Position numbers and translations under genes: made by a program. The notes below the pieces were generated by a model. It made no database searches. It saw only the letters and a list, made by a program, of their open reading frames with translations, and had not been told where the DNA came from. DNA of 64,000 nt from a virus (lineage: Duplodnaviria > Heunggongvirae > Uroviricota > Caudoviricetes), in IMG/VR virus record IMGVR_UViG_3300043433_000105, positions 1-64,000 of that record. One strand, written 5' to 3'. Positions 2,937 to 59,795 of the stretch are shown here, one piece after another; position 1 is the first letter of the stretch, and each line of letters starts with the position of its first letter.

Positions 2937-3017
2937 GATGTGTTTTTGTGCATACTGATAATTACGGTGTTGATATAATCAGTCGTGATCTAGAACGACA
3001 TTTTGGAATTAAACTAA

Positions 3018-3215
3018 ATGCAGACAATTCGTGAACAAGCAATTCATTACGCGCAAGAGTCTGGCTTTAAAGCCAGTTTAGGTAAAACAGATCGAAATGG
3101 AAAATACACTCCACATGTGAATGCGCTTTTTAAATCTGTGCCAGTGGAGTGGATTGAGACTTTGATTGAAAAAGTTCAACAAGATATGTTGACTAACAAA
3201 CAAAATAGTGTATAA
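3018..3215 (+). CDS. hypothetical protein
   Basis: Preceded by TGATATAAT -10-like element. Confidence 0.35.
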   Translation: MQTIREQAIHYAQESGFKASLGKTDRNGKYTPHVNALFKSVPVEWIETLIEKVQQDMLTNKQNSV

Positions 3216-3249
3216 TTGCTAACTTAACTATGAAGGATTTTAAAAACCT

Positions 3250-8040: not shown

Positions 8041-9684
8041 ATGGCAACTCAAAATCAAAATATCTATTACAACGGCAACAAAAACTTGAAGAACCATGGG
8101 GTAGTTATGAACTACACCCAAGATCAACTCAACGAGTGGGCTAAATGCGCGGCTGACCCAATCTACTTTATCAAGACATATGTGAAAATTGTTCACGTGG
8201 ATCGTGGTATAATCCCCTTTGAACTTTACCCATTCCAAGAACGGATCATTAACGCATATGTAAACAATCGAAAAGTAATCTGTAAGATTGGTCGCCAACA
8301 AGGTAAGACACAAACTACTGCGGCTTTCTTTTTGTGGTTCATTATTTTCCATGACGTTAAACTTGTTGGTATCATGGCTAACAAGGCTGCAGTTGCGCGT
8401 GAAATTTTAAGTCGTATTCAATTCTCTTACGAAGGTCTTCCTTTCTGGATGCAGCCTGGCGTAAAAGAGTGGAACAAAGGTTCCATCGAATTGTCCAATG
8501 GTAGCGGTATCATCACTGCCGCAACATCCCCAAACGCGATTCGTGGATTCTCTGTTTCTGCTTTGTATATCGATGAAACAGCGTTCATTCCGCCTAACAT
8601 TGCAGAAGAGTTTTTCACATCTGTTTTCCCTACAATTTCTTCAGGTAAAGATACTCGAATCTATTTGTCATCAACCCCAAAGGGTTTAAACCACTACCAC
8701 AAAATGTGGGTAGAGGCAGAGCAAGGTACCAACGGTTTCTTTCCTGTTGCGGCAGAGTGGCACGAGAACCCTTCACGCGACGAAAAATGGCGTCTGGATC
8801 AGCTACAGACCCTTGGTGAACTGAAGTATAACCAGGAAGTGCTTTGCCAATTTATGGGAAGTTCTAAGACCCTGTTAAACGGTGCTACGCTGATGGCGTT
8901 GACAACAGTTCCACCGATCTTTATAAAAGACAAATTAGAGTATTTCAAGCAACCTGTCAAGGGTAGAAATTATGTCATCACAGTTGATACATCACGTGGT
9001 CGCCACTTAGATTTCTCTGCACTGACTGTAATTGATATCACAAGTTTGCCATATGAAGTTGTTGCAACTTATAAAGATAACGAAATTTCGCCAGAAAGCT
9101 ATCCACATTTGATTTACACAATTGCAAAGAGCTATAATGATGCATATGTTTTAATTGAAGTAAACGACCTTGGTGAAATGATCAGTTCAAACCTGTTCTA
9201 CGAATTTGAGTATGAAAATGTTTACTTTACATTCAAAGATGTTTTGAACGAAGGAAGAGGATACCCTGGTATTCGAACCACCAAGAAAGTGAAGGCAATC
9301 GGCTGCGCTACTTTGAAGAGTTTGATGGAGCAGGATCAGTTGATAATCAACTCCCACAAGATATTGACTGAGTTTGGAGTGTTTTCGCAGAAAGGTGCTT
9401 CCTATGCTGCGGATGACGAAGAAATCAATGATGACTTGATGACTTGTTTGTGGTTGTTTGCTTGGTTGACAAAACAGCCTTTGTTTGCTGAGTTGACAGA
9501 CACCAATATTCGTTCTATTCTGGCTAAGAAGACAGAGCAGTACATTGATGAAAATATGTTGCCGTTTGGCTTTATTGATGATGGCAGAGATGCCGTTGGT
9601 GATATCGACGTTATGCAACGTGTTGGTGGCGGTGCTGACTGGATGCAAAAATGGCTAATGTCAGACTTGCAACCACGTGACTAA
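8041..9684 (+). CDS. 17: terminase large subunit (gp17-like)
   Basis: Walker A GRQQGKTQ; blocks IMANKAAVAREIL, KEWNKGSIELSNGS and IDETAFIP parallel T4 gp17. Confidence 0.9.
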   Translation: MATQNQNIYYNGNKNLKNHGVVMNYTQDQLNEWAKCAADPIYFIKTYVKIVHVDRGIIPFELYPFQERIINAYVNNRKVICKIGRQQGKTQTTAAFFLWFIIFHDVKLVGIMANKAAVAREILSRIQFSYEGLPFWMQPGVKEWNKGSIELSNGSGIITAATSPNAIRGFSVSALYIDETAFIPPNIAEEFFTSVFPTISSGKDTRIYLSSTPKGLNHYHKMWVEAEQGTNGFFPVAAEWHENPSRDEKWRLDQLQTLGELKYNQEVLCQFMGSSKTLLNGATLMALTTVPPIFIKDKLEYFKQPVKGRNYVITVDTSRGRHLDFSALTVIDITSLPYEVVATYKDNEISPESYPHLIYTIAKSYNDAYVLIEVNDLGEMISSNLFYEFEYENVYFTFKDVLNEGRGYPGIRTTKKVKAIGCATLKSLMEQDQLIINSHKILTEFGVFSQKGASYAADDEEINDDLMTCLWLFAWLTKQPLFAELTDTNIRSILAKKTEQYIDENMLPFGFIDDGRDAVGDIDVMQRVGGGADWMQKWLMSDLQPRD

Positions 9685-11195: not shown

Positions 11196-12061
11196 TACCA
11201 GTTATTCTTACCAAAAGCCATGTTATGACGAGCTTTACGATACTTCTTAGCAATATCATTTGAAAACCCATAATCAATAATAACTGGATGACGATGACCA
11301 GTTACTGGATGTACATATATACCCATATTACGTGGAGCAAGATCGCCTGGGTGCATACCAGAATCATGCATCATACTGATCATATTACTGACATATGGAT
11401 GCTCAACAATTTTGTCATGATCTTTTGGTTCATAAGAATGTTGACCATGTGCCGACCTATGCTCATGCTCCATAGAATCTATAATTTGATGATGCGTCAG
11501 ACCCTTCGGAAAATCTTCATTCTTCGTGTGGTTTGCCAAATCTTTTGCATTGTATTTTTCAACACGACCCATTTCAAGATGATGGCCTTCAGAATGTGAC
11601 TCAAAAACTGGAGCCAAAACTCCATGGTGATTGGTCTTGTAATGCCCTTCATGATCCCACCCTAAAACACCATAAGAGCGATTGATATGGTGATCAGATT
11701 CAAGACTGTTTTGGTCTTGACCTAACAGAGTATCTTCGCCATGGTGTTTGTCGAGTTGACCTTCAAAAGCAATTTTAATTGCAGTTGGGGTTTTGGTCTT
11801 GGTACCATCGACTGTAATTTCTTTATGATCCTTGGGGAAATATACAGCACGTGAAGACCCTTTTTTAGGCTTTCCATCTTCAATACCACTATCAATACCT
11901 TGCTTACCAAGATCACTTATTTTCTTTGACACTGCCTTAAAAATATGATGCGTAGGAAGACTTTCAGAATCAAGAATCGTCTTAATATCTGGGTGAAGTT
12001 CTTCGGTAATAACTTGGTACATTGCCAAGTATGCTTCGGTTACTGTTTTAATTTGTGTCAT
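11195..12061 (-). CDS. histidine-rich hypothetical protein
   Basis: 288 aa with very high His content (HHGED, SHSEGHH, MEHEHRSAHGQH); ATG overlaps the PAAR stop. Confidence 0.5.
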   Translation of the reverse strand: MTQIKTVTEAYLAMYQVITEELHPDIKTILDSESLPTHHIFKAVSKKISDLGKQGIDSGIEDGKPKKGSSRAVYFPKDHKEITVDGTKTKTPTAIKIAFEGQLDKHHGEDTLLGQDQNSLESDHHINRSYGVLGWDHEGHYKTNHHGVLAPVFESHSEGHHLEMGRVEKYNAKDLANHTKNEDFPKGLTHHQIIDSMEHEHRSAHGQHSYEPKDHDKIVEHPYVSNMISMMHDSGMHPGDLAPRNMGIYVHPVTGHRHPVIIDYGFSNDIAKKYRKARHNMAFGKNNW

Positions 12062-24624: not shown

Positions 24625-25683
24625 CTAAAAAAACTCGTCTAACGTTACTGCCTCTTCAAGTTCCCAACCAACAGCTTTAAAAATGTTGTTCAATGGATTC
24701 TTAAATGTCTTCTCATATTGCGTAGCACGATCCACATATTTGTGCAGTTTAAACTCCACTGGTAGATCATCAACAAACGCAATTACTTTCTCTCTAATTG
24801 GATTAGGTTCATCAATATAGATGTACTTAATTTTGTCACCTTCACCAATCGCATCGTACTTTTCATAACCATCTTTGACATCTGCCAGTAGTTTGTTGTA
24901 CATGAGAGATGCCTTAGCAGCGATTGGGGTACCTTTGATATAAACCCTGTTTGGATCACGCCACTTTGCCAGATTGTTTGCGCCGCCTGGGAAAGCAATA
25001 TCTGTAATGTTGCAGGTATTAAACTCTTTGCGCACATCCACTGCAAAATCACGTGTCTCTTGCAACTTACCGTCAATAATCAGCTTAACCGCTTCTTTCA
25101 ATCTGTCACGCACTAACTGCGGTGTACTGGATCGAACCACCTCAATACCCATGATTTTGTAATCACCATCTGGGTATCGCACACCTTCATTGTCATAGAC
25201 TTTGATTGCATACTTTTTCTTGGCACACCAGAAACCAGATGAAGAAATTGCTTCACGTTTAAAGTGAATAGTCTTATCAAAATGGTTTTGCACACGCGCG
25301 ATTTCATCAGTGGCTTCATTGATAAATGGTCGCAGTTTTGTTTCCATTAATTTATCAAGCGCATCCACAATCTTCAAGTCTGGTTGATCTTTCCAATACT
25401 TATCAACCACTGGCTTCATATTCAAATAGCAGCTATCCGTATCACTATAGAATGTGTATGTTAGATTGTCAGTTTTGAAGAATTCGTTAAACCGCTTGTC
25501 GCAGTGAGTACCGACCTTCATAATGATGTACTGACCAGAAAGCGTAATAGCCTTACCTAGTCGAGGATCGTAGAACATAAACCCTTGCTGCAAGAAAACG
25601 CCATAGAGACTGTTTGCTGCAAAAAATGTTAAAGTGAAATCGTCAGGTTCACTCCACTTTGAATTAGTGCTGCATGTCCCCAT
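24625..25683 (-). CDS. 43: DNA polymerase, C-terminal fragment (43B-like; motifs B-partial and C)
   Basis: AANSLYG (Kx3NSxYG motif B remnant) and YSDTDSCYL (motif C YGDTDS); starts with its own ATG. Confidence 0.85.
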   Translation of the reverse strand: MGTCSTNSKWSEPDDFTLTFFAANSLYGVFLQQGFMFYDPRLGKAITLSGQYIIMKVGTHCDKRFNEFFKTDNLTYTFYSDTDSCYLNMKPVVDKYWKDQPDLKIVDALDKLMETKLRPFINEATDEIARVQNHFDKTIHFKREAISSSGFWCAKKKYAIKVYDNEGVRYPDGDYKIMGIEVVRSSTPQLVRDRLKEAVKLIIDGKLQETRDFAVDVRKEFNTCNITDIAFPGGANNLAKWRDPNRVYIKGTPIAAKASLMYNKLLADVKDGYEKYDAIGEGDKIKYIYIDEPNPIREKVIAFVDDLPVEFKLHKYVDRATQYEKTFKNPLNNIFKAVGWELEEAVTLDEFF

Positions 25684-27190
25684 GCAGATCAGACTATATC
25701 ATCACCCATTTCTGGGGTTGTGCGCTTCCACTCACTTGAGTGTACTTCCTCTCGGAATAGTCGTTACACCTTCCTACAATAGTAGGCTTGGCTCGGGATT
25801 TTCTGGTCTAGATGTTCCCCGAATTCACACAATTTTCGACAGCAATTACTTGCTGAAGGTGCCAGCTTTTAACACTTTTAACGCATTTTGAAGAATATTC
25901 TTCATTTCAGATTCACGTTTAGCTGCTTTATATGCAGCGCGTAACTCGTCGTCTGTCATTTCAGATAGACTTTTCATTTTTAATAAATACTCCTGTAATA
26001 AACCACCATAAAGAGAATTAACACTGCAAACTGAAGAAATAATCCACTACGCTAACAAACATATAACAGATTTAGACTACTTTATATGGTATCTACTTTA
26101 CTGTTATGCGTTTGAAGAAACAAAAGGAACTGCAACAGAATCCCATCATATCTTACCTAAAAATAAATTTCCTGAATTTATAAAAATAAAGGACGCACCT
26201 TGGAATAGAGCAAATCTTTCTCAATTCAATCATTATATAGCTCATTATATCCTTGCTAAAGCTATGAGTCAACCATCAACAATAGCCGCATTTAATTTAA
26301 TGGGTAGATGTGCTAAAACAGAGTCTGAATTAATAATAAAAGCTAATTTATATTCTGAATTTAGAAATCAGATCGCAATAAACAATTCACTAAGAAACAA
26401 AGGTCGAAAACTGACTGCATCTCAGCTAGAAAAAATGTCAACTCATATGAAAAATAAAGTCATAGTCCACTATCCCGATTCTGATACGAATTTTCAAATT
26501 GACCGCGACGACCTTCGTTATCTAAACGGTGACGTGATTTTATGCCAAGTTGGTAGAATCCATACTGATAAAACAAAACAAAAGATGTCAGATAACGGTA
26601 TTAAAGATTGTATACAAATTTATAACATATCTAAGCCGGATAAAACTCGTTTCATCCCAAATACTGAAGATATACCACAAGGGTTTGATATCGGCAACCC
26701 ATCACACTCTAGTATTGCAGTAGAAAGATTCACTGGCGCACATCATTTTTACAACCCAACAACGAAAGAAAGTAAACGATTTAAAGTAACCGAAAATATT
26801 CCAGATGGGTTTATTCAAACAAGAGATGGATACGACAACCCATGGAAGGGAGTAGTAATCTACAAAAATTGGGTAACAAACCAAACAGAAACACATCCTA
26901 AATTAGATGAACTGCCGTTTGGTGTATCTGAAAATACATGTAAACATGCATTTATTTTTGAAGGTAAAATTACTTTTAGCCTTCAACGATTATTACGAGT
27001 TCACCCAGATAAATTTAACAATTCAGTAATTCAAAAGTTAATTCGTCTTGACGCTCCTAAGAAAATTTTTAGCTATAAAGTTTCACCATGTATTAGAAAT
27101 TATATACAAACCTTTGAATTTTACAATGACATACCTTTAGTGATACTGCCAATTTATGAAGTAGTTGATAAAATTACTCCAGAAAATTGG
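25684..27190. mobile_element. insertion splitting gene 43 (carries an HNH-type ORF on the opposite strand)
   Basis: 1.5 kb between the end of the pol N-terminal ORF and the start of the pol C-terminal ORF. Confidence 0.55.
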
Positions 27191-27196
27191 CTATAA
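26021..27196 (+). CDS. HNH-family homing endonuclease-like protein
   Basis: First ATG is at 26264, but the frame is open back to the stop at 26018 and encodes ESHHILPKNKF...WNRANLSQFNHYIAHYIL (H-N-H motif) upstream of that ATG. Confidence 0.55.
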   Translation, partial: TLQTEEIIHYANKHITDLDYFIWYLLYCYAFEETKGTATESHHILPKNKFPEFIKIKDAPWNRANLSQFNHYIAHYILAKAMSQPSTIAAFNLMGRCAKTESELIIKANLYSEFRNQIAINNSLRNKGRKLTASQLEKMSTHMKNKVIVHYPDSDTNFQIDRDDLRYLNGDVILCQVGRIHTDKTKQKMSDNGIKDCIQIYNISKPDKTRFIPNTEDIPQGFDIGNPSHSSIAVERFTGAHHFYNPTTKESKRFKVTENIPDGFIQTRDGYDNPWKGVVIYKNWVTNQTETHPKLDELPFGVSENTCKHAFIFEGKITFSLQRLLRVHPDKFNNSVIQKLIRLDAPKKIFSYKVSPCIRNYIQTFEFYNDIPLVILPIYEVVDKITPENWL

Positions 27197-28702
27197 CTCA
27201 ATGCCTCGGCGTTTTGCTTCTTCTTCAATATCCACAGACGTTTGCTTATAGCGCAACATTTCGTTCTTAGCAATTTTACGACCACCTAATGCAAAGTCAA
27301 CTACACGAGGAACGATTCCCTTCACATCCTTTCTAAACATGGCTCCGTTAGCAGCCAGTGTAAAGTCTTCGGTGATACCAAAATCTTTCAACGTCTTACC
27401 AAGTAGCATTTCATCTACAGTCACACCTTCTTTGACACCAACCAAAGTCTCTGGAGACAGGTTTAGAGCCTTCATGATGCTTGGGTATAGCGATGCAGCA
27501 TCAATGCTGATAAGCCACGCATAGAGGCCAGGAATTGGCTCAGAGACGTATGCACCTGGGATCGACTCATTACCATTGCTCTGACGTTCAATATTTACGA
27601 ATTTTTTCTCATTCAAGAGCATCGACTGGATACTACATTCCCAATACCGAACCGGCGAATAAACATCCTCAAAACAGCACTTCATCGTGTATGCCAGCAT
27701 CACACCCAAAGCAATTAAACCCTTGGCCTTATCCAACTGAGTCATGCGCTTTGTGTCAATTACGTTGTACTGTGCAAACGTTTCAATATGCTCTTCGGCT
27801 TCGCTAAACTGCTTAAACGTTGTGCATGGGTTTTCCAGCTTACCAACACCCAGATTGACTTTGGCTAAATGATCAAGACTGTATTTTTCTTCCTTTTGAA
27901 GAACAAACTTCCGGTACATTGCTTGAATGTCATAATGTGTGCGACCAACAATTGTGTATTCTTTGCGCACTTCCTCATCAATCTCATATTCACGTTCATC
28001 AATGATGCCAAATGGGGACAGGCGATTAGCCTCATCGTCACCCAATACGCGATTAATACGGTTAATCAAATATGGTACATCGAAGAATTCAGAATAGAAA
28101 CCATAGATAATATCAGGGTCTTCCTCTTGGATATAGCGGATGATTGCTTCAAGTAATTCAGCCTCGGTTTCAAACCGAACCATCTTACATCCCTCATGCT
28201 CCATAATCGTGATAGGTGCAGTGGTGTAGCTCACCATTTCACCAGTGGCATGATTCTCAAATGCAATGTGTGTAATTTCTTCCAATGCCAGATATGGGTC
28301 AGGTACACCTGGAGGGCCGTTAACACCAACACGAGTTTCAATATCAAAGCCTGTAGCCTTTAACTCAGACAACATAACCTGCATAGGTTCTTGGTAGTTC
28401 AAAGCAATGAATTCGTACTGCCACCGGTTAGGCTCGTATCCATACATCTTTATGGTGCCTTTATATTGCTTCACATACTCACGTGCTGCAGGTATAGTAT
28501 CGAACTTGCGAGGCTTCAGATTTTTACCGTAAATGCTTTTGTATTCACTCTCTTCTTTAGTCTCAAAGTAAATTGTCGGTGAGAATGGAATTTTCCCATG
28601 GACACGTACTTTCTTCCCATTTTTATGTTCGTAGCCGCGATAATAGATTTTTCCATATCGGGAACTCACATGGGTGTAAAACTGGTTAATATCTGGGTTC
28701 AT
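27191..28702 (-). CDS. 43: DNA polymerase, N-terminal fragment (43A-like; exonuclease domain and motif A)
   Basis: Exo I FDIETR; motif A DAASLYPSI; N-terminus MNPDINQFY...YYRGYEHKNGK parallels T4 gp43; start chosen at internal M19. Confidence 0.85.
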   Translation of the reverse strand: MNPDINQFYTHVSSRYGKIYYRGYEHKNGKKVRVHGKIPFSPTIYFETKEESEYKSIYGKNLKPRKFDTIPAAREYVKQYKGTIKMYGYEPNRWQYEFIALNYQEPMQVMLSELKATGFDIETRVGVNGPPGVPDPYLALEEITHIAFENHATGEMVSYTTAPITIMEHEGCKMVRFETEAELLEAIIRYIQEEDPDIIYGFYSEFFDVPYLINRINRVLGDDEANRLSPFGIIDEREYEIDEEVRKEYTIVGRTHYDIQAMYRKFVLQKEEKYSLDHLAKVNLGVGKLENPCTTFKQFSEAEEHIETFAQYNVIDTKRMTQLDKAKGLIALGVMLAYTMKCCFEDVYSPVRYWECSIQSMLLNEKKFVNIERQSNGNESIPGAYVSEPIPGLYAWLISIDAASLYPSIMKALNLSPETLVGVKEGVTVDEMLLGKTLKDFGITEDFTLAANGAMFRKDVKGIVPRVVDFALGGRKIAKNEMLRYKQTSVDIEEEAKRRGIEL

Positions 28703-28857
28703 TTTAAATTTACATAAATTTACACAAAATTTACAGAATAGAAGTTCTGTAAACAATAAATACTATTGTAGACCATTTATGTCTACTGTCAACAAAAATG
28801 TCCTTCGCGGTACTGCAAATACCCAAGGACTCTAACAGTTAAAAAGGAACTATCAGC

Positions 28858-35530: not shown

Positions 35531-36415
35531 TTATTTCTGAGGTGTCAACACCATCCCATATTCATCAACCTTTGGATAAATCTTCTCAGGTTCTTTGAAA
35601 ATAAGTTTGTTTTCTTTGAATGGCCGGTAGTCAACATGGTGATGCCAGCGACTGAATTTGAATACAATCTTTGACACATCTGGATGCAAATCAACCAACA
35701 TTTGCGATTTAGGTATGGTACCCTCATGTGCATAAAATTCTTCGGTGTTGCCACCCTTCATACGCTGCGTAGTGACCTTTTCACAAAGGAAAGCATTGAA
35801 CTGAATAGTACACAAACCATCTTTCAAAACACGCAAGGAAAGATCGGTGTCTTCGTTGTAGCGACCACGCCAACGATAGCCAGAATCATTCTCAATAAGA
35901 AGACAGGAATAGATTCGAGTATTTGTAATGAATGGTGGTACCTTGTCGGTTTTCTTTGCAAAACCTTCATAGTTCAAACCAGCAACAGGCACATTTGTAA
36001 ATCGATCAACAAAGTCTTCTGCAGCAGCCAGAATAGCACCAGTGGCAACTTGAAATTTGTTATTATCGTTTAATCGAACAAAATGCTGGATGTTGTCATC
36101 CATGACCCAGTGGCGTTTGAATCCGTTTTGTTTGGAATGATCTAGGCAGAAGTTACGGGCGGCACCTGGGCCTTTGCTTTTGGTAAATCCCAAATCATCA
36201 CATGTGTCATATTCTTCCAGATACTTATGATCCAGAATAATCACATCAGCTAATGGAGTGCAATTCTTTTTGTAGTCATCATATTGAGACTGCTCCACAA
36301 CAATAAAGTGTGGCACGTGCATACGTGTGAGAGCCTTGGATGTTAGTTGGTTCTCAAAACGGTTTTTAGAGACGATATAGACCGGATAACGTGGATTCAT
36401 GACTTGGATACCCAC
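35531..36415 (-). CDS. putative GT-A-like glycosyltransferase/nucleotidyl-sugar transferase
   Basis: VYIVSKNR...GPGAARNF...WVMDDN (DxD-like) pattern; assignment tentative. Confidence 0.35.
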   Translation of the reverse strand: MGIQVMNPRYPVYIVSKNRFENQLTSKALTRMHVPHFIVVEQSQYDDYKKNCTPLADVIILDHKYLEEYDTCDDLGFTKSKGPGAARNFCLDHSKQNGFKRHWVMDDNIQHFVRLNDNNKFQVATGAILAAAEDFVDRFTNVPVAGLNYEGFAKKTDKVPPFITNTRIYSCLLIENDSGYRWRGRYNEDTDLSLRVLKDGLCTIQFNAFLCEKVTTQRMKGGNTEEFYAHEGTIPKSQMLVDLHPDVSKIVFKFSRWHHHVDYRPFKENKLIFKEPEKIYPKVDEYGMVLTPQK

Positions 36416-38787: not shown

Positions 38788-39828
38788 TTAAACAAACAAA
38801 CACTTCAACAATTCGATGCGTTTTTCTTTGATGGCTTTACCTAACAAAGCACCACCCATCATATGAAAATCAGCAGCAGTGACAGTGTTGCACAATTTTA
38901 CTGCGATCTTCAACAACTTCACATCACCTGCGCTGATAACACGCAACATTTCCATGGAAATGACATCTTCAACCAAGCTACTCATGCGGAAAGCATCGAG
39001 TCGCAACAAGGTGTCATATGTAGACTCAGCATTAGAAAAGTTTAGATTCCTGATAGCAGAAGCAAGACGTTTTGCAGTCGCAGAAGGCCAGATTGTTGTT
39101 TTTCCATCACTAGCAACTGCCGAAAGTTGATCTAGGCTATTAACCCAACCCAACCGCACAAAATTGCGACGAGGCAAGGCATTCTTGAAAAAATCTGAGT
39201 TGACAGGGCCAATGAAATCCAACTTGTTGAAAAAGTCATGCAGCAAACAATCATCATCGAGAACCTTTTCAAGTTCACGCCAAAAACGCTCTGCAGGTAG
39301 TTCATTCAAGGCACCGGAGTCGATTACTTCACGTGCGAGTTTGACGGAGTACATAGAGACACCCCAATCATAACGAGCAGCAAAACGAGCCATGCGCAGA
39401 ACACGCAAAGGGTCTTCTTTGAATGCGTCAGACGTAACACGGATAACACCGTCTCGGATGTCTTTCTGACCACCAAATGGATCAATGATTTGACCAGTCT
39501 TCAAATCCTTTGCCATGGCATTACAGGCAAAGTCTCGACGGAAAAGGTCATCTTCGAGAGTCACATCAGCGCCGAATTCACATTCAAAACCAAGGTAACC
39601 AGCACCCACTTTACGCTCACGACGAGCTAATGCATATTCTTCTTTGGTTTCTGGGTGAAGAAACACAGGAAAGTCTGCGCCAACCTGTTCAAACCCCAGA
39701 GAAATCATTTCTTCTGGAGAGGAACCAATCACAACATAGTCGCGATCTTTTGGAGTGGCACTCATGACTTCATCACGGACAGCACCACCAACCAAGTAGA
39801 CATTGAGTTCAGAGATAGATGTTTTCAT
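38788..39828 (-). CDS. tRNA nucleotidyltransferase (class II CCA-adding enzyme / poly(A) polymerase family)
   Basis: YLVGGAVRD head-domain signature, DxD catalytic pair (RDFACNAMA region), RRD motif. Confidence 0.75.
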   Translation of the reverse strand: MKTSISELNVYLVGGAVRDEVMSATPKDRDYVVIGSSPEEMISLGFEQVGADFPVFLHPETKEEYALARRERKVGAGYLGFECEFGADVTLEDDLFRRDFACNAMAKDLKTGQIIDPFGGQKDIRDGVIRVTSDAFKEDPLRVLRMARFAARYDWGVSMYSVKLAREVIDSGALNELPAERFWRELEKVLDDDCLLHDFFNKLDFIGPVNSDFFKNALPRRNFVRLGWVNSLDQLSAVASDGKTTIWPSATAKRLASAIRNLNFSNAESTYDTLLRLDAFRMSSLVEDVISMEMLRVISAGDVKLLKIAVKLCNTVTAADFHMMGGALLGKAIKEKRIELLKCLFV

Positions 39829-42926: not shown

Positions 42927-43196
42927 TTAATCGAACCAAATATCTTTGATCATAGGGATGCACCATGTATCAGGATAGTAGGTCATAGACCTCCATACAC
43001 CATCATGGCCTTTGAGGATATATCCATAGATACGAATACCATCTACTATGAAAATATCTACGAGTTTCATTTGATCACTTTCAACATAATATTCTGGTGG
43101 AGGTAACAGGAATCGAACCTGCGACCTACGACTTTCACTAAAAGATAAATATATGGTACTCACGAAATTAGCCGTTTCCAGTACCTCTAGCCACAT
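42927..43196 (-). CDS. hypothetical protein
   Basis: 89-aa ORF; 3' part overlaps the tRNA fragment. Confidence 0.25.
   Translation of the reverse strand: MWLEVLETANFVSTIYLSFSESRRSQVRFLLPPPEYYVESDQMKLVDIFIVDGIRIYGYILKGHDGVWRSMTYYPDTWCIPMIKDIWFD
43091..43138 (-). pseudogene. tRNA 3' fragment (T-arm + acceptor 3' strand + CCA)
   Basis: Reverse complement GTCGCAGGTTCGATTCCTGTTACCTCCACCA; no matching 5' half is adjacent. Confidence 0.4.
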
Positions 43197-43222
43197 TATA
43201 ACACAATTTCAAAGGAACTGCT

Positions 43223-46376: not shown

Positions 46377-46407
46377 TGGCAGGCCGTGTAGGATTCGAAC
46401 CTACGAC
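46377..46407 (-). pseudogene. tRNA 3' fragment (T-arm + acceptor 3' + CCA)
   Basis: Reverse complement GTAGGTTCGAATCCTACACGGCCTGCCA, fused to the same 90-bp block that precedes HNH paralogs 2 and 3. Confidence 0.35.
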
Positions 46408-46497
46408 TTTCACTAAAAGATAAATATATGGTACTCACGAAATTAGCCGTTTCCAGTACCTCTAGCCACATTATAACACAATTTCAAAGGAACTGCT

Positions 46498-47750: not shown

Positions 47751-48545
47751 TTATAGCATGGTTTTGGTGTGATAGTCAAACAAGGCATTAAAAACTGATT
47801 TGATATCATGATCATAAAAGCCTGAACTGTTAATGTTGTTAAATTCCAACACTTTAACTTCGTCATCGACCAAAGCAGTATCCATTACCACACAATCACA
47901 TGGTAACCATACATCAGCCAATCTTTGCGCTTCTTCAATCACTGCAGTGTCTAATTCCTGCTGTAAATTCATTTGATCATGGGCACGGTACATTGACCCA
48001 GATATGACTTTACCACCAACAATGAACCAACGCCACTCGGCCTGAATAGTCTTTGGGGTATTGATCACGATATCAGTTTCCGGTGCCATGTAATAGCTAC
48101 CTGGGCCACTTTCCATCATCGACTTAAACCATTCAATGATTTCCTTTGGCTCCATTACGGTACCAGAAAATTGCTTATCATCAAGGCTAGGTCGAATGAA
48201 GTATTCTTTATGCCAACGATCTTGATTGTTTTCAAGAAAAAATACCAACTCTTTTGCCGTTTGAATTTGATCATTCACCATATCAGAACGGTGTTCGACA
48301 AAGTTGTGATAATTCAACTTGGTAAGGTCATGATGCAAACCTTTCCATCCTCTTTTAGCTGCAACCCGAGCCAATAGGTTAGAACCGTAGGGAATATAGT
48401 TTAAACCTCCCAGGTCTTCGTTTGCCGCGATTTCTTCGGTAAATGGTATAGCACCTACCCAAACAACGGGAAGATGGCCTGTAGCCCTTCTAATCTTTTC
48501 AAGCGACTGAGCGTTAATGAGGTTGTGTTGGATTACGAATTTCAT
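47751..48545 (-). CDS. ATP-grasp fold enzyme
   Basis: FIRPSLDDKQFSGTV, EWRWFIVGGKVISGSMY, DEVKVLEFNNINSSGFY (ATP-grasp C-terminal E-x-N motif). Confidence 0.6.
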   Translation of the reverse strand: MKFVIQHNLINAQSLEKIRRATGHLPVVWVGAIPFTEEIAANEDLGGLNYIPYGSNLLARVAAKRGWKGLHHDLTKLNYHNFVEHRSDMVNDQIQTAKELVFFLENNQDRWHKEYFIRPSLDDKQFSGTVMEPKEIIEWFKSMMESGPGSYYMAPETDIVINTPKTIQAEWRWFIVGGKVISGSMYRAHDQMNLQQELDTAVIEEAQRLADVWLPCDCVVMDTALVDDEVKVLEFNNINSSGFYDHDIKSVFNALFDYHTKTML

Positions 48546-49012
48546 GCTAGTTCTTTCGCATAACAAATAAGTTCATCCAGTGTATCAACCATGGGAATAT
48601 TAAACCGATCACAAATAATTTCCACATTACCCTTGCGCCAAAACCCATCAGGGCAACAAACAACAGCATTGCGATATTGACCTGCAATTAACCCTAACTC
48701 CATTAGAGTAATAGGTGATTTCGTGTTTGGATCAAAGTAAAAAACAATAAGCGAAGACTTAAACAAGTGATCAATTTCCCAATTGACTTGCTGATTGAAC
48801 TGCTTATCATGAATGCTTTGAACCCATGAAGAATCCCAGTCATCGCGGCGAGGATTGTAGATAGTTACTTCAGTACCACTTAATGCTAATGCGGTCGTGA
48901 GTCGAGTTTGCCAGTCTTCAGCAACACCCATTTCAATAGAGCCTGCCAGAAAAATGGAAAATTCATTCGATTTTACACTACTTGTATCTTGCGGGGATTT
49001 AAAAATTTTCAT
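48542..49012 (-). CDS. nucleoside 2-deoxyribosyltransferase-like protein
   Basis: IFLAGSIE...W......YNPR...SSLIVFYFD...ITLMELGLIAG pattern of the NDT/DUF4062-like fold; start at MKIFKSP. Confidence 0.45.
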   Translation of the reverse strand: MKIFKSPQDTSSVKSNEFSIFLAGSIEMGVAEDWQTRLTTALALSGTEVTIYNPRRDDWDSSWVQSIHDKQFNQQVNWEIDHLFKSSLIVFYFDPNTKSPITLMELGLIAGQYRNAVVCCPDGFWRKGNVEIICDRFNIPMVDTLDELICYAKELA

Positions 49013-49181
49013 AGCTTGTTCAACTCTCGCCAACCGAGTTTTGCAATATGATATTTTTGGTGTCATCTTCACCAACAAGTAAACCACCAAAGATATGAAC
49101 AAATTTTTTAGAACTCATGAAAAAATGAGTACAACCAGCACGTTCTTGTCGAATTGTTTTAAGTTTTCGTTGTTTCATAAA

Positions 49182-51603: not shown

Positions 51604-51736
51604 TTTAATTCCTTCATTATATTTACTTACTTACACAATATCAGTTGTACCAAAGTAGGAATCGAACCTACGTTGCGACCTCAAGACGGGTACGTATCCT
51701 TGCCTCTAGATGATTTGGTACGTTTTCTTTATTCTA

Positions 51737-52642: not shown

Positions 52643-52771
52643 TTTGATTACCTCTTTTGTTTTTCGATGATTGAATTATAGCACAGTTTGTATGAAGTTT
52701 TGGAATCGAACCAAAAATTTGTTGCCAATCAGTGACGCCTTTTTCTGATATCGAGGGCAACAGCTTAACCT

Positions 52772-53098
52772 TTAGCTGACTTCATTCTTTTCTTTCCATT
52801 GTGACCAGATTATATCTGCTTCTTCCTTTAATTCTTGATTCAATTTTTTTCTTCTCACATATGCATTGATGCTTTTTTCAAATTTTTCCATCAATTCTTC
52901 AGGAGAAATTCTGCCACAGAAAACTTCCGATGAACTATATGCATCTATTACTTTACTTGTTCTTCGTGTCCACCACTTCAAAAATGGAACAGTTTTTACA
53001 ATACGCACCTCACCATAAAAATCTGGCTCCAATACCATATCATAGTATTGATCATCTTCTTTACAGTAAACATGCATTACTTGATTATATGCGTTCAT
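52772..53098 (-). CDS. hypothetical protein
   Basis: 108-aa ORF. Confidence 0.35.
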   Translation of the reverse strand: MNAYNQVMHVYCKEDDQYYDMVLEPDFYGEVRIVKTVPFLKWWTRRTSKVIDAYSSSEVFCGRISPEELMEKFEKSINAYVRRKKLNQELKEEADIIWSQWKEKNEVS

Positions 53099-54952: not shown

Positions 54953-55120
54953 AATAACCTCAAAAAATAAATGGTAATGGATCAGCACCTACCTTGCGAC
55001 CTTATTTCGACAAACTACAAAATTTTCATTTTGCCACATCGTGCTACTTAAAGCATTTTCGCATCGTACCCTATGATTCCCCATTACCCCCGAGTGTGGT
55101 TCGGGTTTAAACCTAAAATA

Positions 55121-55351
55121 ATCATTGCCGGTATCCAAGGATTTGAACCTCGAATCCATTCTACCCCCAGCACCGTTCGGATTCCTGTTAAGCGGGATTG
55201 GTATTTATCCCGACTTCGTTTCATAAGATAACACTCTTATGTCACTACTGCCCTATTCTCCGATGCCTTGTTAGGTAAATTGTCCTCTTAGACCACAATA
55301 TCAGTTCTTTCTACTGACTCTGTTTTATTAAAGGCAGATACCGGCAATGAC
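55121..55351 (-). ncRNA. tRNA-like structured element bounded by perfect 14-bp inverted repeats
   Basis: TCATTGCCGGTATC ... GATACCGGCAATGA; contains a canonical T-arm (CGAGG-TTCAAAT-CCTTG) but no foldable anticodon or D arms. Confidence 0.3.
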
Positions 55352-55377
55352 CACTTAACTCTATTGTAACACAAATT

Positions 55378-55465
55378 TGCCAGAGTGGATTCGAACCACC
55401 AAATATCTTTCGATATTTTTTGCAGGGCTTTCACCTGCGACTCTACCTCATTTCGTCCACTAGCA
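55378..55465 (-). ncRNA. tRNA-like RNA with T-arm and long hairpin, non-canonical
   Basis: T-arm GGTGG-TTCGAAT-CCACT; hairpin AAATATC-GAAAG-ATATTT; no acceptor pairing found. Confidence 0.25.
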
Positions 55466-55480
55466 AAACTTTATATATGA

Positions 55481-55567
55481 GAGCCAACTGAGATTCGAAC
55501 TCAGGACTACACAACCAAATCATATTTCTGGTTGACCTACCGACTTGCCGTTACGTGCGATTGGCTC
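55481..55567 (-). ncRNA. tRNA-like RNA (type-II length) with perfect acceptor and T-arm but non-canonical body
   Basis: Acceptor GAGCCAA/TTGGCTC, T-arm CTGAG-TTCGAAT-CTCAG, 8-bp hairpin CAACCAGA/TTTGGTTG with loop AATATGA lacking U33. Confidence 0.35.
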
Positions 55568-55590
55568 TCATATATAAACTGTTCGACCAT

Positions 55591-55737
55591 ATGTAGGGGG
55601 ATTCGAACCCACCGCTGTGCCCGCCTTAAACCAACTTGGCTACACCTCCATTACGGAAGTGGTAGGATTCGAACCTACGAATGGGCACGTGCTAACCAAC
55701 TACACTATACTAGGTCTAGGAGTAATTACTTCCTATT
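55591..55737 (-). ncRNA. two adjacent tRNA-like units lacking anticodon arms
   Basis: Unit A: GGAGGTGtaGCCaagttggtttaaGGC fused to T-arm GGTTCGAATCC. Unit B: D-arm TAGTGTAGTTGGTTAGCAC followed 10 nt later by T-arm GTAGGTTCGAATCCTAC. Confidence 0.3.
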
Positions 55738-55890
55738 GTAAAACAAAATTCGTCAACTTTGTATCACATGTAAGAATTATATCACATTTTTCTTACATGT
55801 GGGAACTATTTCTAATTCCTCATCAAGTTCTCAACTGTCACGGCTTTCTGTTGAGAATCCTACGCAGATAGCTCTTGCTACCTTGTCCGA

Positions 55891-55930
55891 ACCATTCGAT
55901 GTGTGTAGGATGACTTAATTATAGCACACT
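55891..55930 (-). promoter_or_regulatory. early-type promoter cassette positioned to transcribe the tRNA-like array (no ORF downstream)
   Basis: Reverse complement AAAAGTGTGCTATAATTAAGTCATCCTACACACATCGAATGG. Confidence 0.45.
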
Positions 55931-56796: not shown

Positions 56797-56869
56797 TGGA
56801 GGCGCATACCGGAATCGAACCGGGTCTTAGGATTTGCAATCAGTGACCTAAACTTTCTGCCAATGCGCC
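56797..56869 (-). tRNA. short tRNA-like gene (anticodon region contains GCA; Cys?)
   Basis: Acceptor GGCGCAT/ATGCGCC, T-loop TTCGATT, CCA; anticodon arm could not be folded confidently. Confidence 0.4.
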
Positions 56870-56875
56870 TTAATA

Positions 56876-56962
56876 TGGTGGGTGTGGATAGGATTCGAAC
56901 CTACATTAGTGATGTACTCACAACTGCGTCACTCGCAGCCCCGATTCTCCAAGTAATTGTAC
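56876..56962 (-). ncRNA. tRNA-like RNA with T-arm and CCA but no acceptor pairing
   Basis: GTAGG-TTCGAAT-CCTAT...CACACCCACCA; 5' region has a CTGCG-AGTGA-CGCAG hairpin. Confidence 0.3.
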
Positions 56963-56997
56963 ATTTTACACATCGAGAAGCACACCCATATTTCATT

Positions 56998-59117: not shown

Positions 59118-59795
59118 TTAATCTTCCCACTTGCTAGATTTTTCGTTGGCAACATACAGTGTGTATGTCTTACCAGTGTTTGCAAAACGAGCAATGCGCT
59201 TTGTAGACAGTGATACTTCATAGTTACCACTCATCAATTTAATGTTTTCCAAACGAATGTCAACCGCAAAATTACGATCAGTTTCCCCAACATCAACACT
59301 AAATGTATTGAACGAGGTGGATGGATTACCGTCTTTATCCAGAGTCAACAATGTGCATGTGATCTTGCTACCGTCGCCACCGATGCGCAGCATTTCAGAA
59401 CCCAACACAGCGCCTGCCTTCAACAGTGACTTCAGGTTTTCTTCAGTCAAAGTAAATGTTGCGTCAAAACTTGGCTCTGGCAATTTCTTATCTGGGAATG
59501 CCAAAATCTCAGGCGCAGCATATCGATATTCTACACGATTTTTACCTTGGCTAATGGTCAAAGAAGACTCACCAAATTCCAGTTCTGGTTCGCTAAACAA
59601 GCTAATCACGCCAAGCAATTGAGACAGGTCATAGATACCAAAGGATTTTGGAAACTCGTCTTCAATAGTAGCACCCGCATACATGTTACGCTCGACAGTA
59701 CGAGTATGAATGTAGTTACCCGCTTCAATCATCACGTTACGATTAATGGAGGAAAAGTTCTTCAAAATTTCCATGGTTTGTTTGCTAATCTTCAT
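59118..59795 (-). CDS. 45: sliding clamp gp45
   Basis: Co-linear with T4 gp45 (MKISKQTMEILKNFSSINRNVMIEAGNYIHTR vs MKLSKDTTALLKNFATINSGIMLKSGQFIMTR; YDLSQLLGVISLF). Confidence 0.8.
   Translation of the reverse strand: MKISKQTMEILKNFSSINRNVMIEAGNYIHTRTVERNMYAGATIEDEFPKSFGIYDLSQLLGVISLFSEPELEFGESSLTISQGKNRVEYRYAAPEILAFPDKKLPEPSFDATFTLTEENLKSLLKAGAVLGSEMLRIGGDGSKITCTLLTLDKDGNPSTSFNTFSVDVGETDRNFAVDIRLENIKLMSGNYEVSLSTKRIARFANTGKTYTLYVANEKSSKWED

Follow-up and report, generated by a model that had tools for sequence, protein, structure and literature searches.

A minus-strand array of tRNA-derived, probably non-decoding RNA genes in a divergent T4-like phage, with an apparently undescribed, putatively tRNA-scaffolded RNA family

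Two small RNAs with no known function, species 1 (rnaC) and species 2 (rnaD), lie within the tRNA cluster of T4-type phages (PMC3014915, PMC9697503). The 139-nt rnaC has a terminal stem beside a CCGGGUUCGAAUCCCGG T-arm, and a body that is not that of a tRNA. It is a stable processed RNA that accumulates late in infection. In the tRNA-like domain of YrlA (Rfam RF02553) a T-arm, a closed acceptor-like stem-loop and a D-arm stand in permuted order, closed by a helix; in Mycobacterium smegmatis RNase P cleaves the 7-bp closed acceptor, and CCA is added to it (PMC4201824). In the permuted and split tRNA genes of Cyanidioschyzon merolae and Nanoarchaeum the 3′ half precedes the 5′ half, a short linker joins them, and decoding tRNAs result. 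To our knowledge, the BHB-dependent splicing machinery of such genes is absent from bacteria. tmRNA, including its two-piece forms from permuted genes, is processed by the tRNA machinery and combines a tRNA-like acceptor/T-arm end and an encoded ACCA with a large internal domain that holds tertiary loop pairing. Lastly, in the engineered tRNA scaffold of Ponchon and Dardel a cargo RNA reportedly replaces the anticodon stem-loop, and the cell is said to process and stabilise the product.

We compared these systems with a 64,000-nt stretch of a Caudoviricetes genome (IMG/VR record IMGVR_UViG_3300043433_000105, positions 1 to 64,000), hereafter the window. Phage tRNA clusters are usually read only as codon-usage or anti-defence supplements, and the units that tRNA finders skip are ignored. 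At least nine units skipped in the window are tRNA-shaped, and around one of them a family of 26 or more distinct members can be drawn up. We consider it probable that the window, which belongs to a divergent T4-like phage, carries a minus-strand array of tRNA-derived, non-decoding RNA genes that mature as tRNAs do, among which unit D represents a conserved, tRNA-scaffolded family.

The array and its tRNA-shaped units

How far does the array reach, and which of its units do tRNA finders recognise? Seventeen copies of the T-loop motif GGTTCRAWTCC were counted in the window, every one of them on the minus strand (0.04 copies expected from shuffles), and nine of the 17 lie outside every ARAGORN or Rfam tRNA call. 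By ARAGORN and the motif scan, 17 canonical tRNAs adjoin at least nine tRNA-shaped, non-decoding units. The minus strand holds every unit of the array, which reaches far outside 55121-55737, further than the first-pass annotation had it.

55118-55354, minus strand: unit D, precursor form of the 230-nt element, closed by an 18-bp terminal helix
55376-55466, minus strand: unit C, tRNA-Leu-like class II RNA; called 'tRNA-Phe(aaa)' by ARAGORN, best alignment tRNA-Leu
55481-55567, minus strand: unit B, 9-bp acceptor-like stem, 8-bp hairpin and perfect T-arm
55585-55716, minus strand: unit A, nested double tRNA-like RNA as predicted by MFE and centroid folds
56800-56869, minus strand: unit F, degenerate tRNA-Cys(GCA)
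56876-56987, minus strand: unit E, acceptor GGGUGUG/CACACCC followed by A and an encoded CCA, and a T-arm
52691-52785, minus strand: further non-canonical unit, perfect 7-bp acceptor, D-arm, T-arm and A73
51647-51720, minus strand: further tRNA-like unit of about 74 nt, perfect 7-bp acceptor and T-arm
43095-43188, minus strand: tRNA-like unit ending in ACCA, from the T-loop motif scan
43109, 46391, 51658, 52702, 55139, 55599, 55665, 56811 and 56891, minus strand: T-loop motif copies without a tRNA call

Hand folding had led the first-pass annotation to read 55121-55737 as an array of non-canonical tRNA-like RNAs. With 17 motif copies against 0.04 and no canonical tRNA recovered in that segment, the array is no folding error. 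ARAGORN makes a single odd call there, a 93-nt 'tRNA-Phe(aaa)' at 55375-55467 that corresponds to unit C and whose loop, UGAAAGC, has G at position 33; Rfam makes none at the gathering threshold. The best sub-threshold scores with the Rfam tRNA model are 24.0 bits (55658-55711) and 22.5 bits (unit F), the threshold being 29. In units A to F, D included, the 7-bp acceptor stem stacks on a 5-bp T-stem whose 7-nt loop is of the GTPsiC type, as in a canonical tRNA. An anticodon arm of the canonical kind (5-bp stem, 7-nt loop with U33, anticodon that can be read), backed by ARAGORN or by at least 29 bits in Rfam, is found neither in 55121-55737 nor in E or F. Since the 7-nt U33 anticodon loop is lost in all array units, we take them to be unable to decode.

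Unit C has a D-arm and a T-arm; its acceptor is UUGCUAG/CUGGCAA with A73, and its long variable arm ends in a GAAA loop. Its anticodon arm falls 2 nt short of canonical length (4 nt short in the closest relative, L121), and the loop UGAAARC is conserved. C is 86.8% identical between window and L121, the two lineages in which the conservation of C and A could be followed; the differences include a compensatory change from A-U to C-G and a paired 2-nt stem deletion, and one acceptor position has changed on both sides to a non-pair (U-C) in L121. C is a tRNA-Leu derivative with a truncated anticodon arm. Could some units, C above all, be non-decoding aminoacyl carriers for non-ribosomal transfer or synthetase titration? 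The alignment of C with tRNA-Leu, its retained A73, D-arm and long variable arm and its compensatory change are what such a carrier would show. LeuRS would be the enzyme, proposed because of A73 and the class II shape, on the assumption that this synthetase ignores the anticodon. We find the idea very unlikely: none of the 40 window ORFs scanned is an aminoacyl-tRNA transferase gene, and the free variation of acceptor pairs 2:71 and 3:70 in the D family is evidence against a fixed identity in the acceptor stem.

Two units beyond 55121-55737 resemble C in the way that they change. The unit at 52785-52691 has a long 'anticodon' arm, UUGCC...GGCAA, with an inner hairpin; its L121 orthologue is identical in the interior, and the changes in the acceptor are compensatory. 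The unit at 51720-51647, which has neither an ARAGORN nor an Rfam call, differs from its L121 orthologue by two compensatory acceptor pairs, and here too the interior is identical. The first-pass annotation had suggested structured small RNAs, and for these two units and C the compensatory changes lend that suggestion reasonable support.

Unit B, as had been noted, has a perfect T-arm and an 8-bp hairpin without U33 (loop AAUAUGA, A at position 33). It is bounded by a 23-nt inverted repeat, 91% complementary (55465-55487 and 55561-55583), and it is absent from L121, with similar sequence found nowhere else. Unit E ends in an encoded ACCA (56879-56876), in keeping with the CCA ends reported earlier for some units; its 4-bp D-like stem carries a loop of 25 nt, and the place of the anticodon loop is taken by a hairpin whose own loop, AGUGA, has 5 nt. 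No relative of E was found, and it is specific to the window. B and E may be recent, lineage-specific additions, a status that we regard as uncertain. Unit F keeps its acceptor, T-arm and UUGCAAA loop and has lost the 5′ strand of its anticodon stem; its orthologue at 11469-11542 of L121 is a proper tRNA-Cys(GCA), called by ARAGORN. Part of the array may thus be debris, B and E having no relatives and F decaying.

Are the units in general decaying tRNA pseudogenes, or recombination scars of a fast-evolving tRNA array, without a function of their own? F, a degenerate copy of a tRNA-Cys intact in L121, fits this description, and the earlier suggestion of decayed tRNAs holds for it and for none of the others. 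The uniqueness of B and E points the same way, as does an exact 82-nt duplication (43124-43205 = 46399-46480), which indicates that rearrangement is still ongoing. This duplication comprises the 5′ part and promoter of the 43095-43188 unit, and the copy at 46399-46480 lies upstream of a T-arm unit ending in GCCA (46404-46377). We nevertheless hold general decay to be fairly unlikely: C and the units at 52785-52691 and 51720-51647 keep their pairing through compensatory changes, with interiors 87-100% identical, and units D and A, to which we now turn, bear on the question as well.

Unit D and its relatives

What is the 230-bp element that the first-pass annotation found between perfect 14-bp inverted repeats? 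The repeats, TCATTGCCGGTATC/GATACCGGCAATGA at 55122-55135 and 55337-55350, are indeed 100% complementary over 14 nt and stand 201 nt apart. They are made up of a 7-bp acceptor stem and its leader-trailer extension, and the element, first given as 55121-55351, runs from 55351 to 55121.

55343-55128, minus strand: D tRNA-like core, acceptor CGGUAUC (55343-55337) / GAUACCG (55135-55129), G73 at 55128
55169-55267, minus strand: D tip domain, with helix b GGCAUCG/CGGUGCU

The core also holds an expanded D-arm, a long arm and a T-arm (55152-55136). The tip is marked by three invariant strands, GAGAAUAGGGCAGUAG, CGAAGUC and ACAGGAAUCCGAAC, and by hairpins H1 (55244-55218) and H2 (about 55214-55192), whose loops pair with each other, with one mismatch in five to six pairs. 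The shuffle z-score of D is −6.5. Between the window and L121 the tip is 91.9% identical and the covarying terminal stem 21%; the acceptor stem has been fully replaced, from CGGUAUC/GAUACCG in the window to GAGUGUA/UGUACUC followed by ACCA in L121.

The covariance model of the D family, R1, is defined in this analysis. R1 identified 27 full-length members, 26 of them distinct, in uncultivated phage contigs, at 88-199 bits; the window copy scores 176.9 bits (55126-55342) over the full model length. That the family is so widespread had not been foreseen. Its traits, all present in the window copy, are a tRNA core, a long arm, pairing between the H1 and H2 loops, and the invariant elements GGAG.AUAGGGCAGUAG, CGAARUC and ACNGGAAUCCGAAC. 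The core comprises U8, a D-stem with a GG-containing loop, a T-arm and an acceptor; R1 gives canonical tRNAs 20-30 bits, and for this reason we call the frame tRNA-like. An arm of 14-17 bp stands in for the anticodon stem-loop. At its far end, where the anticodon loop would be, lies an invariant three-way junction, together with an AGUA/GAA module and two hairpins joined by covarying kissing loops. Most members encode NCCA or a near-CCA, and in 8 of 23 a leader-trailer helix of 8-16 bp gives the precursor form.

The pairing of this structure is well maintained. Across the family 93.5% of cells are paired, against 34-43% in slid-partner controls, and double-sided changes occur in 36 of the 44 pairs, with a covariation score of 0.683 against about 0.1. 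For the kissing loops the figures are 93.8% against 18-49%, and 0.75 against at most 0.23. Covariation of this order is as strong as in curated RNA families. For D, then, the suggestion of a structured small RNA gains strong support from 27 family members and their covariation, and the 26 distinct relatives, the covariation and the invariant tip argue against decay.

Rfam 15, 50,697 phage records and the genomes of 185,579 bacterial and archaeal species yielded no member. When the region and two D members were compared by blastn with the 50,697 cultured phage records, nothing relevant emerged, and Rfam offered no family for D at E <= 10 (window region) or E <= 5 (nine other D loci). The core pattern of D matched eight times in the 185,579 genomes, against about 34 expected by chance on our own estimate; all eight are chance matches within coding sequence, and R1 matched none. 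Gene neighbours compared in 10 loci include none in common and no conserved protein that would point to a partner, and a search of IMG/VR with the flanking 167-aa protein returned no relative. Literature searches on the family motifs and on phage tRNA-like RNAs brought up no description. We conclude that D belongs to a conserved and apparently undescribed phage RNA family.

How does D stand beside the T4 RNAs? The first-pass annotation had likened the array to species 1 and 2, and in architecture the likeness to species 1 stands: like rnaC, the array lies in a phage tRNA cluster, and D and E share its plan of a terminal stem, a GGGUUCGAAUCCC T-arm and a non-tRNA body. In homology it does not. 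R1 finds neither rnaC nor rnaD at E <= 10 (L128 4909-5172 included), rnaC lacks the three-way junction with kissing loops of D, and its AGUAGCG...CGGAAC resembles the AGUAG-H1-CGAA of D only loosely.

Might D and similar long units instead be intron-containing tRNA genes, from which the inserted domain is removed to leave a decoding tRNA? The insertion does sit at the place of the anticodon stem-loop, a group I intron occurs elsewhere in the window (Rfam Intron_gpI, 25670-25881), and in tRNA-Leu(UAA)-like genes of relatives the anticodon loop contains an inserted hairpin. On the other hand, Intron_gpI finds no P3-P9 core in D or in nine other members, nor does any group II or other ribozyme model match them. 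A group I core would not fit into a domain of about 100-130 nt; conservation is strongest at residues within the 'insert', and no conserved remnant of an anticodon loop flanks helix b. We know of no protein-dependent tRNA splicing pathway in bacteria. This origin of D is extremely improbable, and for want of a ribozyme core and an anticodon remnant we set it aside.

That D is a small phage tmRNA-like RNA, or that A is a Y RNA (YrlA) working with a Ro60/Rsr protein, is hardly credible to us. D does share with tmRNA the tRNA-like end and the large internal domain with pseudoknot-like loop pairing. Its AAUAGGGCA also resembles AAUAGUCGCA, which we take to lie upstream of the Escherichia coli resume codon; this is a lead only. 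However, D has a true D-stem and is missed by ARAGORN and by all Rfam tmRNA models. Among the members neither the length nor the C-terminus of the frames that follow GCA is conserved, and position 3:70 is G-C, C-G, U-A or G-U across the family, with no G3:U70 in D itself. Moreover, one phage contig, L135, carries a separate, permuted tmRNA beside its D-like RNA. Lacking G3:U70 and a conserved tag, D was rejected as a tmRNA. Next to engineered scaffolds and natural tRNA mimics (viral TLS, mascRNA), D looks like a natural version of the scaffold design, differing from the engineered ones in being a natural, conserved phage gene family.

Unit A and the permuted tRNA-like modules

Two short units, each with a D-arm and a T-arm some 10 nt apart, had been noted, and both are there: D-arm 1 (55705-55689), GTGCCCATTC and T-arm 1 (55678-55662), then D-arm 2 (55640-55623), GGGCACAGC and T-arm 2 (55613-55596). 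What had not been anticipated is that the two are predicted to form one nested, permuted RNA. An outer stem, GACCUAGUA (55716-55708) with UACAUAUGGUC (55595-55585), encloses both. Within it a 6-bp connecting stem, GUGCCC (55688-55683) / GGGCAC (55622-55617), bounds an inner module (55688-55617), and between T-arm 1 and D-arm 2 lies a closed 7-bp acceptor-like hairpin, CACUUCC-GUAAU-GGAGGUG (55661-55643). MFE and centroid folds give this nested structure unaided.

The order of parts in the inner module, T-arm, closed acceptor-like hairpin, D-arm, is that of YrlA. It is also found in stand-alone permuted modules at three other phage loci (L013, L019 and L155), and a nested one occurs in L171; in all, modules with a closed acceptor and a D-arm number 11 in phage loci and none in the parallel-strand null. 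Is A then a Y RNA? Arm order and a weak match to the Rfam YrlA model, read as T-arm, closed stem and D-arm, speak for it. The score, however, is 23.6 bits (26.3 bits for L013) against a threshold of 69. A TROVE-domain (rsr) protein was found neither among the scanned window ORFs, including all eight of at least 450 aa, nor among the neighbours of L013, L019 and L171. The closing helix of A leads to a second tRNA-like frame instead of a Ro-binding stem, and the Ro-binding stem motif is not kept between window and L121. The likeness to YrlA is one of topology, and these phage examples extend circularly permuted tRNA-like modules beyond the Ro60/Y RNA systems to which they were earlier tied.

Permuted tRNA genes offer a second comparison. 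The inner module of A, L013, L019 and L155 likewise have the 3′ half ahead of the 5′ half and a linker between the acceptor strands. Unlike the Cyanidioschyzon merolae and Nanoarchaeum genes, the phage modules have no anticodon loop to restore: the closing helix, of 6-8 bp, ends open, and there is no loop sequence to join.

Where might such a unit have come from? The 21-mer GGTTCGAATCCTACCACTTCC occurs at more than 119 loci, all of them 3′ ends of ordinary phage tRNA-Ser or tRNA-Tyr, and the inner unit of A therefore derives from a class II tRNA. Because tandem duplicates yield a closed acceptor by construction, we considered reading A simply as two tandem tRNA-Ser copies. The second copy would have no 3′ acceptor strand and the first would need a 17-nt insertion; the nested fold explains more pairs, and we prefer it for that reason. 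As the evolutionary origin of A, a tandem tRNA-Ser duplication is nonetheless likely.

Conservation of A is partial. Over its first 94 nt (55716-55623) A shares 93.6% identity with L121, and the changes in the closed stem preserve its pairs, whereas adjacent spacers are 72-79% identical; this argues against general decay. A 13-nt deletion in the 3′ part of the L121 copy, which would suit a pseudogene, takes out a strand of the connecting stem; T-stem 2 is weakened by it as well, and the MFE fold there differs. In the window these models fold A as two tRNA-like frames, of which the inner is a circularly permuted module lodged in the outer; its topology is YrlA-like, and it is only partly conserved.

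Expression, maturation and possible roles

If the array is expressed, where might its transcripts begin? The first-pass annotation had described a promoter cassette that points into the array with no ORF downstream. The cassette contains the extended −10 site TGCTATAAT, and on the same strand no ORF of at least 50 aa follows before 55159. The motif TGNTAYAAT is enriched in the window, with 30 copies against 7.7 ± 2.5 expected. Two further sites lie close to individual units, and the window also encodes an enzyme of the CCA-adding type.

55918-55926, minus strand: extended −10 promoter-like site TGCTATAAT, inside the promoter cassette
55776-55784, minus strand: extended −10 site TGATATAAT, immediately before unit A and kept in L121; TTCCCA lies 18 nt further upstream
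55363-55371, minus strand: extended −10 site TGTTACAAT; the D precursor stem begins about 7 nt downstream
38788-39828, minus strand: phage CCA-adding-type nucleotidyltransferase gene, PolyA_pol head domain (E = 4e-19)

In the reading that we prefer, that of a tRNA-derived, non-decoding array, the units retain those tRNA features by which the processing and stabilising machinery recognises its substrates: a 7-bp acceptor on a 5-bp T-arm whose loop is GGUUCRAWUCC, in most units a D-arm, and in many an encoded CCA. Transcripts would start at the extended −10 promoters, and RNase P and 3′ trimming would release each unit as they do the neighbouring tRNAs. CCA would be encoded or added; the nucleotidyltransferase could complete the units that do not encode it, a functional link suggested by the presence of the gene. 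In D the tRNA body may act as a natural scaffold for processing and nuclease resistance, and D would then be a case in which evolution uses that body to carry another RNA domain. The invariant tip would be the working part; judged from its architecture, its most likely role is to bind a conserved factor or ligand, of the host or of the phage. If A is treated as YrlA is in Mycobacterium smegmatis, RNase P would cut it in the GUAAU loop and leave a two-piece, double-elbowed RNA.

Might the units act instead as decoys or sponges, offering their elbow and acceptor to host tRNA-targeting defence nucleases or other tRNA-binding factors? The first-pass annotation had raised tRNA-derived decoys. At least nine tRNA-shaped, non-decoding units beside 17 canonical tRNAs, intact elbows (the GG of the D-loop and the T-loop) and a CCA-adding-type gene would all suit such a role. 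The anticodon nucleases PrrC and RloC and colicins E5 and D, however, read the anticodon loop, and units without one would be poor decoys for such enzymes. The scanned ORFs and the neighbours of D showed no defence or anti-defence context, and decoys would leave the invariant tip of D unexplained. We judge a decoy role distinctly unlikely.

A bolder proposal, possible if doubtful, is that D represents a new class of phage effector RNA, a natural tRNA scaffold with an invariant, compact tip (three-way junction, bulged-G-like AGUA/GAA module and kissing loops) that would serve as an aptamer for a ligand or protein, or as a catalytic centre, and act on a universally conserved host target. The nested and permuted genes of the A type would be cut by RNase P to two-piece, double-elbowed, CCA-tailed RNAs, and the two kinds would form a joint repertoire for host takeover. 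The D family in any case gives a testable handle on the role of stable RNAs of the T4 species 1/2 type in phage tRNA regions.

The phage and its array of tRNA-like units

The window comes from a phage that is T4-like but divergent. Among its genes are those for a gp45-type sliding clamp, a gp44-type clamp-loader subunit, UvsX, gp32 and a T4-type large terminase. Among 50,697 cultured phage records the best match to the terminase comes from a Synechococcus phage (50% identical); Caulobacter phage Cr30 and then a Pelagibacter phage come next. A group I intron interrupts the family-B DNA polymerase gene; the gap also holds an unannotated 310-aa ORF (26264-27196, plus strand). The genes for a glycosyltransferase, an ATP-grasp enzyme and a deoxyribosyltransferase-like protein together suggest that the phage DNA is hypermodified. 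Between 34 and 64 kb genes run on the minus strand, as do all the tRNAs of the window (18 by ARAGORN, 16 by Rfam). One of these, at 57074-56998 (minus; anticodon UAA, called Leu), is only 77 nt long with a 4-nt variable region, atypical for a class II tRNA-Leu.

Features of the window
24625-25683 and 27191-28756: halves of the DNA polymerase gene
25670-25881, minus: group I intron between these halves (Rfam, 76 bits)
35531-36415, minus: TET-associated glycosyltransferase
38788-39828: CCA-adding-type nucleotidyltransferase gene
43188-43095, minus: tRNA-like unit ending ACCA
46404-46377, minus: tRNA-like unit ending GCCA
47751-48566, minus: R2K-clade ATP-grasp enzyme
48542-49102, minus: nucleoside 2-deoxyribosyltransferase-like protein
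51720-51647, minus: tRNA-like unit missed by ARAGORN and Rfam, kept in L121
52785-52691, minus: tRNA-like unit missed by ARAGORN and Rfam, kept in L121
55354-55118, minus: unit D
55466-55376, minus: unit C
55567-55481, minus: unit B
55716-55585, minus: unit A
56869-56800, minus: unit F
56987-56876, minus: unit E
59118-59795: gp45-type sliding clamp

The first-pass annotation had described non-canonical tRNA-like units, an element bounded by inverted repeats and a promoter cassette. All of this is present, on the minus strand; the interpretation placed upon it is partly supported. The T-arm motif GGTTCRAWTCC has 17 copies where 0.04 would be expected, on the minus strand only, and nine of them lie outside every ARAGORN or Rfam tRNA call. 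Within 55121-55737 Rfam makes no call at threshold and ARAGORN a single odd one, a 93-nt ‘tRNA-Phe(aaa)’ with the loop UGAAAGC and G33. The 14-nt inverted repeat is perfect (55122-55135 and 55337-55350), and unit B is bounded by one of 23 nt. In the promoter cassette TGCTATAAT occupies 55918-55926; the window holds four times as many copies of the extended -10 motif TGNTAYAAT as expected (30, against 7.7 ± 2.5), among them those at 55776-55784 and 55363-55371.

For comparison we used a close relative, represented by three syntenic IMG/VR contigs from one sample (L120-L122), whose gp45 is 87% identical to that of the window. Identity is 72-94% in canonical tRNAs and 72-79% in spacers. The relative carries A, C and D, and lacks B and E.

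Unit D and its family

What kind of RNA is unit D? Between the window and L121, one of the relative's contigs, its terminal stem has been swapped entirely with pairing kept: CGGUAUC/GAUACCG, then G and CAA, in the window; GAGUGUA/UGUACUC, then A and CCA, in L121. The interior is conserved, and the tip (55267-55169, a three-way junction with hairpins H1 and H2) is 92% identical. Searches with a 20-mer from the tip, then with a two-block pattern, brought up unrelated large phage contigs and 24 metagenome contigs. A covariance model built on nine sequences, R1, gives 88-199 bits to 27 full-length members, of which 26 are distinct. In their alignment 93.5% of cells pair; sliding the partners by 1-3 columns lowers this to 34-43%. 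Both sides have changed in 36 of 44 pairs, and the covariation score reaches 0.683, against about 0.1.

Members begin with a 7-bp acceptor, UA and a 4-bp D-stem, followed by an enlarged D-loop that carries an inserted hairpin and ends GUGG.UA. A helix pairing the position-26 side with the variable-loop side was read by eye from the members, the automatic column scan having missed it (alignment A7). Helix b, of 7 bp, covaries at nearly every pair. The junction, GGAG.AUAGGGCAGUAG - H1 - CGAA(A/G)UC - H2 - UUA.AC.GGAAUCCGAAC, is invariant; within it lie a GGG:UCC helix, also invariant, and, where H1 begins, at its base, an AGUA/GAA module. The H1 and H2 loops pair with one another through five pairs (93.8% paired, 18-49% in slid controls; covariation score 0.75, at most 0.23 in controls). 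The 3' part consists of a T-arm, the 3' acceptor strand, N73 (mostly A) and NCCA or near-CCA. R1 gives ordinary tRNAs 20-30 bits, confirming the tRNA frame.

The members are of two types. An unpaired leader with encoded NCCA or NCCG is found in 14 of 23. In eight of the 23, the window included, the acceptor helix is prolonged by 8-16 leader-trailer pairs; the 14-bp repeat is thus the acceptor stem plus its leader-trailer extension. Upstream of D, about 7 nt from its first paired base, is a TGTTACAAT site.

Two known identities were rejected. D is no tmRNA, having neither G3:U70 nor a conserved tag frame, and L135, a contig with a D-family member, has its own permuted (two-piece type) tmRNA two genes off (2805-3224, minus; tag ANESSFRMAA; Rfam tmRNA_permuted, 95 bits). 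That tmRNA adjoins a tRNA-Leu and the D-family RNA. Nor is D an intron-bearing tRNA, for there is no ribozyme core and conserved residues lie inside the ‘insert’. A group I intron occurs near a D-family member on an unrelated metagenomic contig (L173, 519-987, minus; Rfam, 61 bits).

The family has no match in Rfam (window and nine other loci) and no relative among cultured phages. Across 185,579 species genomes the pattern matched eight times, each by chance within coding DNA, so that no true match remained. No neighbouring protein was shared by the 10 D loci compared, and no match to the motifs was found in the literature. That D represents a new RNA family, on the known principle of tRNA mimicry or scaffolding in phage tRNA clusters, is well supported.

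The remaining units

Apart from D, the array is a mix of conserved non-decoding tRNA derivatives and, probably, debris.

Features of comparison contigs
L013, 8718-8831: stand-alone permuted module; YrlA model aligned over its full length, 26.3 bits
L019, about 9190-9330: stand-alone permuted module
L155, about 11640-11760, reverse strand: stand-alone permuted module
L171, 8306-8474: permuted module nested in another tRNA-like frame, as in A; identified by outer acceptor pairing and MFE fold, separately from the scan
L121, 11346-11466: tRNA-Leu(UAA)-like gene whose anticodon loop is interrupted by a covarying hairpin, about 26 nt long (CUUUUAC[hairpin]AAAA)
L141, 1030-1141 (identical in L178): gene of the same kind

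Folded without constraint (55737-55575; MFE and centroid), unit A shows, in this order, an outer stem; D-arm 1; a 6-bp stem without mismatch, GUGCCC/GGGCAC; T-arm 1; an acceptor-like hairpin of 7 bp, closed, CACUUCC-GUAAU-GGAGGUG; D-arm 2; and T-arm 2. As modelled, A is a circularly permuted tRNA-like module within a second tRNA-like frame, with an anticodon loop in neither. The Rfam model of YrlA, the bacterial Y RNA-like RNA, aligns to A's succession of T-arm, closed stem and D-arm with a score of 23.6 bits, far under its threshold of 69. Phage tRNA-Ser and tRNA-Tyr genes have 3' ends identical to the inner T-arm and acceptor strand, and D-arm 2 belongs to the class II type, so A likely arose by tandem duplication of a gene of that type. 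Its first 94 nt are 93.6% identical in L121, and the closed stem differs only by G-U to Watson-Crick switches. L121 also has a 13-nt deletion between GGG repeats, by which GGGCAC and part of T-stem 2 are lost, and its MFE fold differs there.

This topology is not confined to the window. A scan for T-arm, 7-bp closed acceptor and D-arm gave 11 matches (six unique), against none in the parallel-strand null. It picked up the L013, L019 and L155 modules, which consist of these elements and a closing helix of 7-8 bp; they and the L171 module sit within phage tRNA arrays. No gene for TROVE/Rsr (Ro60) was found among the window ORFs scanned or near the permuted modules. In M. smegmatis, RNase P cuts a YrlA whose acceptor stem is closed and 7 bp long, and CCA is added (PMC4201824). 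By analogy, A may be cut within its GUAAU loop.

Unit C aligns with tRNA-Leu (UG, GACGAAAUGAGGUAGAGUC D-arm, long variable arm, A73). Its anticodon arm is 15 nt, against a canonical 17 and 13 in L121, where the loop UGAAARC is kept and in the stem C-G replaces A-U, a compensatory change, and each strand has a one-nt deletion; at one acceptor position L121 has U-C. Most likely C is a derivative of tRNA-Leu that is functional but unable to decode. In L121 the hairpin-bearing tRNA-Leu(UAA)-like gene occupies the place of the window's canonical tRNA-Leu(taa); under the Rfam tRNA model the L141 copy, insertion included, reaches 41 bits.

Are the units simply decayed tRNAs, one of the readings that had been suggested? 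For F, a tRNA in decay, this holds: its orthologue in the relative is a proper tRNA-Cys(GCA), while in the window copy the 5' strand of the anticodon stem has been lost. It fails for D, a new family, and most likely for C. B and E fold an acceptor and T-arm around odd middles (in B an 8-bp hairpin with loop AAUAUGA; in E a 5-nt loop, AGUGA, with ACCA encoded) and have no relative in any sequence fetched. ATATAT repeats flank B, where L121 has a single copy.

Outside 55121-55737, the units at 52785-52691 and 51720-51647 differ from L121 by compensatory acceptor changes and are otherwise sequence-identical. An exact 82-nt repeat (43124-43205 and 46399-46480, minus) spans a promoter-like site, TGTTATAAT, together with the 5' portion of a tRNA-like unit; the copies then differ in the T-arm/acceptor end (ACCA at 43095, GCCA at 46377). 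Other D-bearing phages have several tRNA-like genes of 86-190 nt with NCCA ends, skipped by ARAGORN.

A proposed mechanism and known systems

For the array, structure, covariation, promoter-like sites and an enzyme gene have been demonstrated, whereas the steps of the mechanism are inferred. Units would be transcribed from extended -10 promoters. Every unit retains a 12-bp acceptor/T minihelix, which points to release by RNase P and 3' trimming; CCA would be either encoded or added. The products would be stable, tRNA-shaped RNAs that do not decode. In D the tRNA core may act as the scaffold and the invariant tip as the active surface.

Part of the array's logic recurs in YrlA, in tmRNA, in permuted tRNA genes and in engineered tRNA scaffolds, but the array departs from each in at least one defining feature. 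T4 RNA species 1 (rnaC), an RNA with no assigned function and no detectable homology to the D family, is the closest known analogue of the array, sharing its genomic setting and general plan.
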